A stretch of 42,217 bases of DNA, from IMG/VR virus record IMGVR_UViG_2703718801_000022. The stretch is one strand, 5' to 3'. The translations under genes and the position numbers were made by a program. This document shows, piece after piece, positions 7,417 to 9,534 of the stretch. The notes under the pieces are model-generated. The model had not been told where the DNA came from. It was given only the letters and a program-made list of their open reading frames with translations, and did no database searches. Positions within the stretch are counted from its first letter, which is position 1; each line of letters opens with the position of its first letter. Source of the DNA: a virus (Duplodnaviria; Heunggongvirae; Uroviricota; Caudoviricetes).

Positions 7417-8127
7417 ATGGCTAATGCTCAAACTGCCCTCTTCAAATTTGAATCTGTTAACCCTATCCGTTCCATCATTATCGATGGCCAACCATGGTTT
7501 GTAGCCCAAGACGTTTGTAGTGCGCTGCGTATCCAAAACGTCACCCAAGCACTTGAAAAACTGGATGATGATGAAAGGTCTATGTTCAACATAGGGCATG
7601 AACATCGTGCAATTTTTGACAGCCGAGTAAAAGAGATCAACATCATCTCCGAGTCAGGCCTCTACACACTGATCCTCCGCTGCCGCGACGCAGTGACACC
7701 AGGCACTATCCCATACCGCTTTCGTAAATGGGTTACAGGTGAGGTTCTTCCTCAGATCCGCCGCACCGGAAGTTACATTAAAAACTCGCTCACGCAGGAA
7801 GAACGCATAAAGATGGTTGCCGACCAGGTAGCCAACGCCACGGCGTCAGCAGTAATACAGGCAATGAAGATAGAGAACAAAACCTACAGTGCCCCACTGA
7901 AGCCCGGCTACCGCAGCCTGATTCACTCGCCGTCTGGTGTTCTCGGCCTGACGGAGAACTCACTGCTGATGAATCTGCTGAACCAGTTACAGGACGACGG
8001 GCACGACGTATCGGGCGCGGCGGCGGAACTGACCACCATGTTCTGCTACATCGTCGGTGTGAGCAAATGCCTGCGTGATATCCAGACGCACGCGGAGTAC
8101 ATCAACGACAAAGCAGGATTCTTCTGA
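7417..8127 (+). CDS. Antirepressor, BRO-N domain N-terminus plus shared Ant C-terminal domain
   Basis: BRO-N-like motifs (DGQPWFVAQDVCSAL); GGAG RBS; C-terminal about 80 aa near-identical to C-terminus of 9301-10239 product. Confidence 0.75.
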   Translation: MANAQTALFKFESVNPIRSIIIDGQPWFVAQDVCSALRIQNVTQALEKLDDDERSMFNIGHEHRAIFDSRVKEINIISESGLYTLILRCRDAVTPGTIPYRFRKWVTGEVLPQIRRTGSYIKNSLTQEERIKMVADQVANATASAVIQAMKIENKTYSAPLKPGYRSLIHSPSGVLGLTENSLLMNLLNQLQDDGHDVSGAAAELTTMFCYIVGVSKCLRDIQTHAEYINDKAGFF

Positions 8128-8150
8128 CGGGCGGCGGCACAGGGATGTGC
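7894..8150. repeat. Inverted repeat, left copy (3' end of antirepressor gene plus 23 bp)
   Basis: About 257 bp matching reverse complement of 9278-9534 with roughly 11 mismatches by eye. Confidence 0.85.
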
Positions 8151-8199
8151 CTTTAAATAATTCTGTACAGATTGCAGACTGTGGGTGAATAGCGTACTA

Positions 8200-8214
8200 T
8201 TACCTCAAGGGTAA
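8200..8214. promoter_or_regulatory. Operator-like palindrome TTACC-TCAAG-GGTAA at candidate promoter
   Basis: Directly follows -10 TACTAT (8195-8200) of a promoter with -35 TTGCAG (8172-8177) and 17-bp spacer. Confidence 0.45.
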
Positions 8215-8274
8215 ACGGATTGGTTTCATTTTTATTAATCCGTGTAATGAACTTATGAGATATGAGGTAATGTC

Positions 8275-8454
8275 ATGCGAAACGAAAAATTGCAGATGCG
8301 TAGAGCGCAAGCTGCCGCAAGACGTTCTTTCAATGGAAGCGTAGAGTACGTAAAAGTTACTATGACAAAAGATCACGCAAGTCGCGTATCCCGCGCTTTC
8401 TTTGATTCTCGTAACAATAAGGAAAATTATGAGTTCGTCTGCGTCGCAGAATGA
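8275..8454 (+). CDS. Small basic protein, candidate antitoxin/partner of YafO-like gene
   Basis: 59-aa ORF below the track cutoff; GAGGT RBS 6 nt upstream; Arg-rich; overlaps start of downstream gene by 26 nt in another frame. Confidence 0.4.
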   Translation: MRNEKLQMRRAQAAARRSFNGSVEYVKVTMTKDHASRVSRAFFDSRNNKENYEFVCVAE

Positions 8455-8974
8455 TAAAAATCAAATTGTCAGATATAAGGGTCGAGTATTGCATACGCAA
8501 AATTTCTCGGCCCTTTGTGCATCTGATCTTGAGCTGAAGAAAGTATCTGATGCCTTTGCCCAGTATTGGAAAACGGGATACCATCCATCTCTTGGTAAAG
8601 ATGCTGCATTTGCTCGTCCGACAGAAATGCTTAAACTAAATGTCAGGCATACTCATGTCGATAACCAAGACTATATTCCAGAAGATAGTGATAAAAAACA
8701 CACTGGTAAAAAATCATCTTGGGATGCATGGAAAAATATAGCGTCTGTACAAGTAAAATGCATACCAACAAGTGATTGCTTTTTAGTTTATTCGGTAAAT
8801 CACAATCGTGATGCGCTGGTTATGTTTTTTGTTGACGCAGATGCTCACAACATAACTGAGCAAGAAGAGTTTAAAGAGGAAGCAATCACTATCAGTTATC
8901 AATTCTTTGAGAAAACAAAAACAGAACCAATGCCTTTAGAAGAAGATCTTTTTTCTGATAAATGGAAGGAATAG
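8429..8974 (+). CDS. YafO-like toxin domain protein
   Basis: AGGAAA RBS; product resembles YafO ribosome-dependent mRNA interferase as recalled (LGKDAAF...LKLNVRHTHV...CFLVYSV...DADAH); AT-rich. Confidence 0.45.
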   Translation: MSSSASQNDKNQIVRYKGRVLHTQNFSALCASDLELKKVSDAFAQYWKTGYHPSLGKDAAFARPTEMLKLNVRHTHVDNQDYIPEDSDKKHTGKKSSWDAWKNIASVQVKCIPTSDCFLVYSVNHNRDALVMFFVDADAHNITEQEEFKEEAITISYQFFEKTKTEPMPLEEDLFSDKWKE

Positions 8975-9066
8975 TCCGCAGCGCAGGCTTTTTTGTGGAC
9001 GAAACAAAAGTCAGTGCTACACTCATTGACGCCACATTGAGGTGGCTTATAGATGGAAATTTCACA

Positions 9067-9228
9067 ATGAAAAAAGCATTTGCTGCACTGTTCGTTTTGT
9101 TGTCTCTGGTAGCTTCAACTCAGGCCTTTGCCGGTCGTTGTCAGCACGACAGCGACACTGCTGCTGACGGCTCACGCTGTGGTGGGCGTTCTGCGGATTC
9201 CCGCCCAGGCGGCGGTGGCATTCGTTAA
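9067..9228 (+). CDS. Small secreted Cys-containing peptide (hypothetical)
   Basis: 53 aa with clear signal peptide then Gly/Arg/Asp-rich tail with two Cys; weak RBS. Confidence 0.3.
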   Translation: MKKAFAALFVLLSLVASTQAFAGRCQHDSDTAADGSRCGGRSADSRPGGGGIR

Positions 9229-9260
9229 AAACAAGGCCGCGAAAGCGGCCTGTGACATGT
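9229..9260. terminator. Terminator hairpin downstream of minus-strand antirepressor gene
   Basis: GGCCGC-GAAA-GCGGCC stem followed on the minus strand by TTGTTTTT. Confidence 0.55.
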
Positions 9261-9277
9261 CACGATAGTTCCGTTTT

Positions 9278-9534
9278 GCACATCCCTGTGCCGCCGCCCG
9301 TCAGAAGAACCCTGCCTTGTCGTTGATGTATTCCGCGTGGGTCTGGATATCACGCAGGCATTTACTCACACCGACGATGTAGCAGAACATGGTGGTCAGC
9401 TCCGCCGCCGCGCCCGATACGTCGTGCCCGTCTTCCTGTAACTGGTTCAGCAGATTCATCAGCAGTGAGTTCTCCGTCAGGCCGAGAACACCAGACGGAG
9501 AATGAATCAGACTGCGGTAGCCGGGCTTCAGTGG
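9278..9534. repeat. Inverted repeat, right copy (3' end of second antirepressor gene plus 23 bp)
   Basis: Reverse complement matches 7894-8150. Confidence 0.85.

Follow-up and report, generated by a model that had tools for sequence, protein, structure and literature searches.

An antirepressor module repeated in inverted orientation brackets a variable cargo slot in an epsilon15-like Escherichia coli prophage

Introduction

Among the systems described to date, the LexA-Ant-Rep circuit of SPC32H, an epsilon15-like phage of Salmonella, is close to the locus considered here, and the structure of its Ant-Rep complex has been solved (PDB 5D50; see also 5D4Z). According to the article PMC9638917, the tetrameric antirepressor Ant of SPC32H binds Rep dimers, pulls Rep tetramers apart and thereby frees the repressor Rep from its operator. 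Antirepressors that are induced via LexA cleavage are the subject of the review PMC7380047. In this study, a 42,217-nucleotide stretch of viral DNA (IMG/VR record IMGVR_UViG_2703718801_000022), referred to throughout as the window, was analysed around two antirepressor genes that share their 3' ends. Because the two genes converge, the shared ends form an inverted repeat, and three further genes lie between its arms. The window is a phiV10/epsilon15-like (Uetakevirus-type) Escherichia coli prophage. We consider that the repeat delimits a slot for morons, driven by homologous recombination, in which cargo is swapped and occasionally inverted between two copies of one antirepressor module, and we assign this reading a probability of about 0.75.

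Three further lines of earlier work bear on such a locus. Modular BRO/KilA/Ant regulators with shuffled domains were reportedly described by Iyer and colleagues in 2002. The concept of morons, and of insertion hot spots for them in temperate phages, is said to go back to Juhala and Hendrix. Similarly, inversion and gene conversion between the inverted paralogues tufA and tufB of Salmonella were reportedly the subject of work by Hughes in 2000. A literature search for the arrangement described below returned nothing relevant.

Anatomy of the inverted repeat

A repeat search of positions 6000-11500 returned a single inverted repeat, with arms of 292 nt (7859-8150 and 9278-9569) that are 92% complementary and spaced by 1127 nt. 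At its core, 7894-8150 and the reverse complement of 9278-9534 are identical at 247 of 257 positions (96.1%), with 10 mismatches and no indels, close to the 96% identity and 11 mismatches that had been estimated by eye in the initial annotation. The similarity drops abruptly at 8150/9278 and fades upstream of about 7894. The longest perfect tract shared by the arms measures 65 bp, and their overall divergence is 4%. The same repeat is present in all 24 related two-armed loci examined, and a repeat of such length and identity cannot have arisen by chance.

The left arm belongs to the tail-side (T) antirepressor gene on the plus strand (7417-8127; open reading frame (ORF) 7402-8127, with the start at 7417 assigned by the Prokaryotic Genome Annotation Pipeline, PGAP). 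This gene encodes a Bro-N domain (PF02498, 1e-19) followed by a C-terminal module resembling SPC32H Ant. The right arm belongs to the convergent structural-side (S) antirepressor gene on the minus strand (9301-10239; PGAP start 10203), in which a P22_AR_N domain (PF10547, 4e-44) precedes the same kind of module. The T gene thus named lies on the tailspike side and the S gene on the side of the structural genes. The T arm (7894-8150, plus strand, 59.5% GC) consists of the last 234 nt of coding sequence and 23 nt past the stop codon, including the hairpin GGCACAGGGATGTGCC, with weaker similarity up to 7859. The S arm (9278-9534, minus strand, 58.4% GC) continues with weaker similarity out to 9569. 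The 23 nt 3' of each stop codon are 100% identical between the two arms. The extent of the arms given in the initial annotation holds. Its pairing of BRO-N with an AntA-like N-terminal domain stands for the Bro-N half; the AntA-like label of the minus-strand gene was rejected on the Pfam match to P22_AR_N. AntA/AntB domains do join the same module in relatives. The S gene gave no Pfam match to a P22_AR_C domain, and its C-terminus is the SPC32H-type module.

Cargo exchange between the arms

The interval 8151-9277 carries three genes, and the toxin-like cassette and small secreted peptide noted there from the sequence correspond to a YafO-family toxin-like gene and a 53-aa signal-sequence peptide. 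The first gene encodes a protein of 59 aa (8275-8454, plus strand; phrog_6685) and runs into the start of the toxin-like gene. Its position alone makes it a candidate antitoxin; neither Pfam nor PADLOC gave a match. The YafO-family toxin-like gene (8429-8974, plus strand; phrog_1651) is named YafO family toxin by PGAP, with a borderline score to PF13957 (26.1 bits against a cut-off of 25). The third, a 162-bp gene (9067-9228, plus strand; WP_000708858; phrog_14503/3117), encodes the 53-aa signal-peptide protein and is present with most cargos. A Rho-independent terminator-like hairpin (9234-9251, minus strand; AGGCCGC-TTTC-GCGGCCT followed by a T-run) is found at the cargo end, past the 3' end of the minus-strand antirepressor gene. 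A perfect 12-bp palindrome (GTGACATGTCAC) at 9252-9263, between this hairpin and the S arm, is kept in all S-type junctions.

Related prophages were represented by 24 two-armed loci, 23 of which were also aligned at the DNA level. The alignment divides the slot into a constant left junction (8151 to about 8215, plus strand), a variable core (about 8216-8965) and a mostly constant right end (about 8966-9277). The left junction is 88-100% conserved ahead of most unrelated cargos, and the right end consists of the 162-bp secreted-peptide gene and the terminator-like hairpin. In the window, the variable core (8216-8965, 38% GC) holds the 59-aa ORF and the YafO-family gene. The boundaries of cargo replacement coincide with the arms and the junctions.

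At least 10 different cargo sets are bracketed by the same arms in these loci. Besides the set found in the window (the 59-aa ORF, YafO and the 162-bp gene), they include DUF4760; a 633-bp gene with the 162-bp gene; a 327-bp gene with DUF2335 and the 162-bp gene; and 168-bp and 441/444-bp genes, with or without the 162-bp gene. Others are composed of 189-bp and 333-bp genes with the 162-bp gene; 210-bp and 756/867-bp genes with the 162-bp gene; 210-bp, 753-bp and 504-bp genes; or a 327-bp gene with a second YafO-family gene and the 162-bp gene. Concatenated or composite sets were also found. The exchangeable cargo slot that had been suggested from the window alone is thus borne out by the comparison with related prophages. 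The PADLOC defence models gave no match for ten cargo proteins from seven loci, and the slot is therefore not claimed as a defence hot spot.

A weak sigma-70 promoter (TTGCAG-17-TACTAT, 8172-8200) may be present in the constant left junction, as read by eye. With this putative promoter and the terminator, the cargo would be an autonomous moron, expressed largely without regard to its orientation.

Natural inversions of the cargo

The cargo is reversed relative to the phage backbone in three of the 24 related loci. In strain ETEC4085 (locus L014), the three cargo genes are on the opposite strand, and the cargo is the edge-to-edge reverse complement of that in relatives. An unflipped twin was found in UTAK-6 (L015), which is 99.8% identical to ETEC4085 in the tail-side flank and 99.6% identical in a 3.9-kb structural-side flank. 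Between these flanks, the 1521-bp arm-cargo-arm block aligns in reverse only, at 98.5% identity. At the protein level, AntA and the three cargo products do not differ between the two strains. In the flipped allele, the sequences immediately outside the arms are swapped. Its S arm is S-type distally, and T-type variants occupy the cargo-proximal half of both arms, in a conversion tract of about 150 nt that covers about half the arm. This pattern reads as a crossover accompanied by a conversion tract, a signature of homologous recombination. The proposal that recombination between the arms would invert the cargo and leave both antirepressors intact therefore has a natural example in this pair.

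A related arrangement is seen in ETEC1749 (L017), in which 4.6 kb are colinear with the flipped half but the YafO half is in native orientation. Its composite cargo (L017 3267-4808) places the native YafO half head-to-head with the reversed half containing the 168-bp and 441-bp genes, and the 162-bp gene is missing. Since a left-type junction follows both arms, the arrangement of ETEC1749 is not explicable by an error of assembly orientation.

When an artificially flipped version of the window's locus was searched against 5,426 complete E. coli genomes, no match reached at least 80% coverage (0 genomes), compared with 10 genomes for the native orientation of the window's own allele at the same coverage. 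The best partial matches to the flipped query had a different architecture with two convergent Bro-N genes. Flipping of the window's own copy is consequently extrapolated from its relatives. The native junction, in which the 162-bp gene converges on P22_AR_N, was found in 25 genomes, and the simple arm-to-arm flip in one (ETEC4085) with its derivative ETEC1749. The combination of Bro-N, arm and reversed 162-bp gene occurred in 11 genomes, comprising 2 block inversions and 9 native examples of the second architecture described below. Flips, although real, are uncommon.

Origin of the similarity between the arms

All 10 differences between the arms of the window are at third codon positions; 9 are synonymous and 1 is a D/E replacement. 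Synonymous divergence (dS) is 0.18 and nonsynonymous divergence (dN) is 0.006, with a dN/dS of 0.03. The arms have a GC content of 59%, against 46-48% in the N-terminal parts of the same genes, 38% in the cargo core and 47.7% in the window as a whole, which identifies the arm as a compositionally distinct, grafted module. The 3' end of the homology falls at the identical base in every related locus (...GGCACAGGGATGTGC). Where the tail-side gene of a relative has an N-terminal domain of the AntA/AntB or ORF6N type, the homology to the window starts at about 7885. Bro-N, P22_AR_N, AntA/AntB and ORF6N domains are all joined to the same module among the relatives. A protein database search with the 80-aa module returned short free-standing homologues only and no fused forms, and is unusable as a census of N-domain partners.

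The arms were also compared across 14 loci, in which no fixed differences between T and S arms were found. Mean differences per 253 nt were 10.1 between T and S arms within a genome, 10.7 between T and S arms of different genomes, 9.0 among T arms and 8.6 among S arms. Given the absence of fixed differences and the similar divergence in all comparisons, the T and S arms constitute one allele pool. Frequent intragenomic gene conversion, evening out the arms of each genome, was considered and is unsupported, as divergence within genomes equals that between genomes. The initial annotation had attributed the identity of the arms to recent domain exchange or gene conversion; the contrast in GC content, the constant 3' base, the four N-domain partners and the lack of fixed T/S differences agree in presenting the arms as a discrete, shuffled module. 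The word recent is relative only, as the synonymous divergence of the arms is about 0.18.

The SPC32H-type module and its repressor

The C-terminus encoded by each arm is a complete homologue, of about 80 residues, of the 86-aa SPC32H Ant (PDB 5D50). The arm-encoded module matches chain E of 5D50 over residues 3-79 with an E-value of 6e-14 and about 41% identity. In addition, the window carries a free-standing small antirepressor gene, ant, at 6844-7101 on the plus strand (ORF 6826/6844-7101; phrog_450; also a PGAP coding sequence), an orthologue of SPC32H Ant (5D50 chain E, E 2e-46). Its product shares 86.7% identity with SPC32H Ant and 44% with the arm module, and represents a third, diverged copy of the module in the window. 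A perfect LexA box of the CTGTATATTTGTACAGT type (6807-6822; CTGT-N8-ACAG with 0 mismatches) lies directly upstream of this gene. No LexA box with 0-1 mismatch was found upstream of either fused antirepressor gene.

The presumed target of the Ant modules is an SPC32H-type prophage repressor, Rep, encoded at 36064-36648 on the plus strand (5D50 chain A, E 4e-42). The window Rep is far more diverged from SPC32H Rep than the free-standing Ant of the window is from SPC32H Ant. With its LexA box, a small Ant of 87% identity and Rep, the window appears to carry a complete SPC32H-type SOS circuit. The three Ant modules of this phage look to be under different controls, because a LexA box precedes the free-standing ant and the S gene lies behind an Arc-like gene with a promoter-like site.

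The fused arm modules would be expected to bind Rep. In E. coli, the arm module also has free-standing counterparts of about 95 aa at 98-99% identity. One of these, in the related prophage L025 (6001-6320), is a 97-aa Ant with 98% identity to the arm module and the same 23-nt hairpin after its stop codon. It is located between an MT-A70 methylase gene and the integrase gene, and the Rep of L025 is 100% identical to that of the window. This pairing fits a match between the arm-type module and the Rep type of the window, though it is no proof. The position of the L025 gene is occupied in the window by a metallophosphatase gene (40179-40958).

A second architecture with nested repeats

A second architecture was found in related loci L003, L004, L005, L016, L019, L020, L022 and L024 (for example, L003 3497-6737). 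On the S side of these loci stands a Bro-N or AntA gene that has an upstream region of its own, and a truncated 5' fragment of P22_AR_N in opposite orientation comes next. The arc/mnt pair is absent from this architecture, which is common in E. coli prophages and has similar matches in ST131-type genomes. It has perhaps arisen from an earlier arm-to-arm inversion followed by deletion. A hypothesized three-gene intermediate was not found.

Here the inverted repeats are nested, with upstream regulatory regions as the outer pair and the arms as the inner pair (L018 3941-6998; L023 3928-4218 and 8549-8840). The region of about 280 bp upstream of the Bro-N gene in the window corresponds to the outer repeat. 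In CUVET21-H2, the whole ant-cargo-ant block (2.6 kb, compared with N21) has the reverse orientation with respect to the tailspike and structural genes. Similarly, the whole block in MS 196-1 is inverted via outer repeats of about 290 bp with 80% identity. Both block inversions change which antirepressor gene adjoins the LexA-controlled small ant.

Proposed mechanism and alternative explanations

In the mechanism that we propose, a module of the SPC32H Ant type would have been grafted onto two different N-terminal domains, Bro-N and P22_AR_N. Purifying selection on the module would preserve the similarity of the arms, and recombination or gene conversion would merge the T and S arms into a single set of alleles. 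When related phages meet, homologous recombination in the arms and junctions, by host RecA or by the phage RecT and exonuclease, would replace the cargo. An occasional intramolecular crossover between the arms would flip the cargo with both antirepressors undamaged. The window encodes a RecET-like recombination module in its early region, made up of a PDDEXK exonuclease (DUF3799) and RecT (37253-38952, plus strand). Recombinases of this kind promote exchange between short, diverged homologies in phages, and the module could catalyse recombination from arm to arm. Flipping is probably close to selectively neutral. No evidence of a programmed or regulated switch was seen, and flipped alleles are rare.

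Several observations weigh against this explanation. A longest perfect tract of 65 bp predicts a low recombination rate for the copy in the window, the more so with 4% divergence. The exact allele of the window occurs in native orientation only (10 genomes against 0 at no less than 80% coverage), and flipped alleles in general are known from public assemblies alone. Divergence between the arms within a genome is not below that between genomes, so frequent intragenomic conversion is not demonstrable, and the pooling of alleles could stem largely from recombination between phages. The putative cargo promoter is weak by consensus, and a promoter scan made no call there. Finally, the binding of Rep by the fused modules is something that we infer.

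There is some support for the view that the repeat is a static relic of one domain fusion, irrelevant to the turnover or inversion of cargo, in which selection on the protein alone has kept the copies similar. With a dN/dS of 0.03, selection by itself could hold the protein sequences nearly identical; the allele of the window is known in one orientation, and arms diverge within genomes about as much as between them. Selection on protein does not readily account for synonymous sites without fixed T/S differences in the 14 loci, nor for cargo boundaries that coincide with the arms and junctions. The pair ETEC4085 and UTAK-6, with inversion endpoints inside the arms and a conversion tract, largely refutes this view, which we regard as unlikely. 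That flips might instead be products of assembly, a segment of about 1 kb between 257-bp inverted repeats having been oriented arbitrarily, is very improbable. The repeats do exceed typical short reads, the flipped alleles come from assemblies, and the simple arm-to-arm flip is represented by one genome. An arbitrary orientation would nevertheless leave the arms simply swapped, which those of ETEC4085 are not with respect to UTAK-6, and the joining in ETEC1749 of a flipped half to a different half in native orientation goes beyond such an error. The inversions in CUVET21-H2 and MS 196-1 span at least 2.6 kb, include whole genes and use other repeats, and the flipped loci were all deposited as complete genomes.

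The occurrence of both orientations in nature also recalls programmed invertible elements of the Gin/Hin/Cin/Pin type, in which a site-specific recombinase would act at a defined site in the arm, such as the 23-nt hairpin, to switch cargo expression. Between the arms of the window this post-stop segment is 100% identical, against a difference of about 16% at synonymous sites (P about 0.017 under neutrality), and the homology stops at the same base in every locus. The segment varies among loci, however, and the flipped allele bears a conversion tract of about 150 nt in place of a fixed-core exchange. Other flips run through different, outer repeats, and flipped alleles are rare. No serine invertase or resolvase domain was found among the 27 non-structural ORFs with Pfam results, the structural genes not having been scanned; the only site-specific recombinase among these ORFs is a tyrosine integrase at the prophage end (40961-42217). 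A programmed element is, on these grounds, hardly credible. The moron slot driven by homologous recombination may also be extended to a cargo dock maintained by selection, a proposal that we consider quite unlikely. The Ant module would then double as a docking cassette, and RecT-driven exchange between arms would load the cargo. Rare flips, from the Bro-N/LexA-SOS side to the P22_AR_N side under Arc/Mnt control, would give heritable heterogeneity in the timing of cargo expression, and the nested outer repeats of relatives would swap the antirepressor beside the SOS-controlled ant.

Prophage context and neighbouring genes

The closest phage record to the window is TL-2011b, which has the same architecture. 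In phiV10, the Bro-N gene is present, the second antirepressor gene is absent, and only a short interval adjoins the structural genes. The bovine E. coli genomes OkiPb01680 and OkiPb01700 both carry the locus at 100% identity.

Just upstream of the S antirepressor gene is a small Arc-like gene (10312-10500, minus strand; PHROG match and PGAP coding sequence) with a promoter-like site at 10543-10515. A gene for an Arc-family DNA-binding protein (10570-11031, plus strand; Pfam, PHROG and PGAP) is divergent from it, in an Mnt-like position. The S gene therefore appears, from this gene order, to be controlled in an Arc/Mnt-like manner. A predicted membrane protein of 196 aa (phrog_8033) is encoded at 11099-11689, in the interval that separates the Arc-family gene from the structural genes; its position is conserved in relatives and is one where an exclusion gene might be expected.

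On the other side of the locus, the small ant and the Bro-N antirepressor gene are separated by a strong terminator-like hairpin (7238-7254) and promoter-like sites (7104-7177), and are probably transcribed as separate units. The O-antigen acyltransferase gene oac, a single 1017-bp gene in phiV10, is represented in the window by two overlapping ORFs (3281-4045 and 3916-4395). As both match Acyl_transf_3, the split oac is probably frameshifted or a pseudogene.

Significance

The locus provides a sequence-resolved case of phage mosaicism at one site, in which an antirepressor domain doubles as the homology anchor for the exchange and inversion of cargo. It also presents one small Ant module with at least four N-domain partners and with different regulatory inputs in a single phage, namely a LexA box and an Arc/Mnt-like pair. 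Shiga toxin-producing (STEC), enterotoxigenic (ETEC) and extraintestinal pathogenic (ExPEC) E. coli and ST131 hosts are among the matched genomes, and the arrangement bears on the induction decisions of epsilon15/phiV10-like prophages in pathogenic E. coli and on crosstalk between prophages. The slot is, in addition, a compact place in which to seek new prophage-borne toxin-antitoxin or exclusion genes. Were the expression of the cargo altered by flipping, the locus would be a phase-variation device based on recombination, which the current evidence does not show.

Comparison with known systems

Like SPC32H, the window combines an Ant of 87% identity, preceded by a perfect LexA box, with a homologous Rep, and the arm module aligns with the whole of Ant. 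The arm module shares only about 41% identity with the SPC32H protein and differs from it in its fusion to large N-terminal domains, its two copies in inverted orientation and its lack of a LexA box; the Rep is also diverged. The S gene resembles the immI region of P22 (mnt-arc-ant) in having a P22 antirepressor N-domain behind an Arc-like gene, with a divergent Arc-family gene adjoining. In contrast to immI, P22_AR_C is replaced by the SPC32H-type module, the genome is epsilon15-like, and the gene converges on a second antirepressor gene. The shuffling of N- and C-terminal domains among relatives of the window is in keeping with the modular BRO/KilA/Ant regulators.

The cargo core shares with morons its AT-rich composition (38% GC), its variation among near-identical phages, the terminator that follows it and its placement between conserved genes. 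It differs from them in being bracketed by an inverted repeat of functional coding sequence, by which the cargo is also made flippable, and in that its own promoter is putative. As in tufA/tufB, rrn operons and inversions between prophages, near-identical inverted copies share polymorphisms, and homologous recombination inverts the intervening DNA with the genes left intact. Here, however, the invertible segment measures about 1 kb and lies within a phage genome, the repeat is the 3' module only of otherwise different genes, and the repeats also anchor cargo replacement. The G segment of Mu (Gin), the C segment of P1 (Cin) and the P segment of e14 (Pin) are likewise phage segments with inverted repeats overlapping gene ends, found in both orientations. 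For the window, no invertase was found among the 27 non-structural ORFs with Pfam results, the repeats are long, and the crossover is accompanied by conversion. Flipping gives rise to no alternative gene 3' ends and so leaves both antirepressor proteins as they were. The locus is a variant of two phenomena already known, the mosaicism of phages at conserved boundaries and inversion between inverted paralogues.

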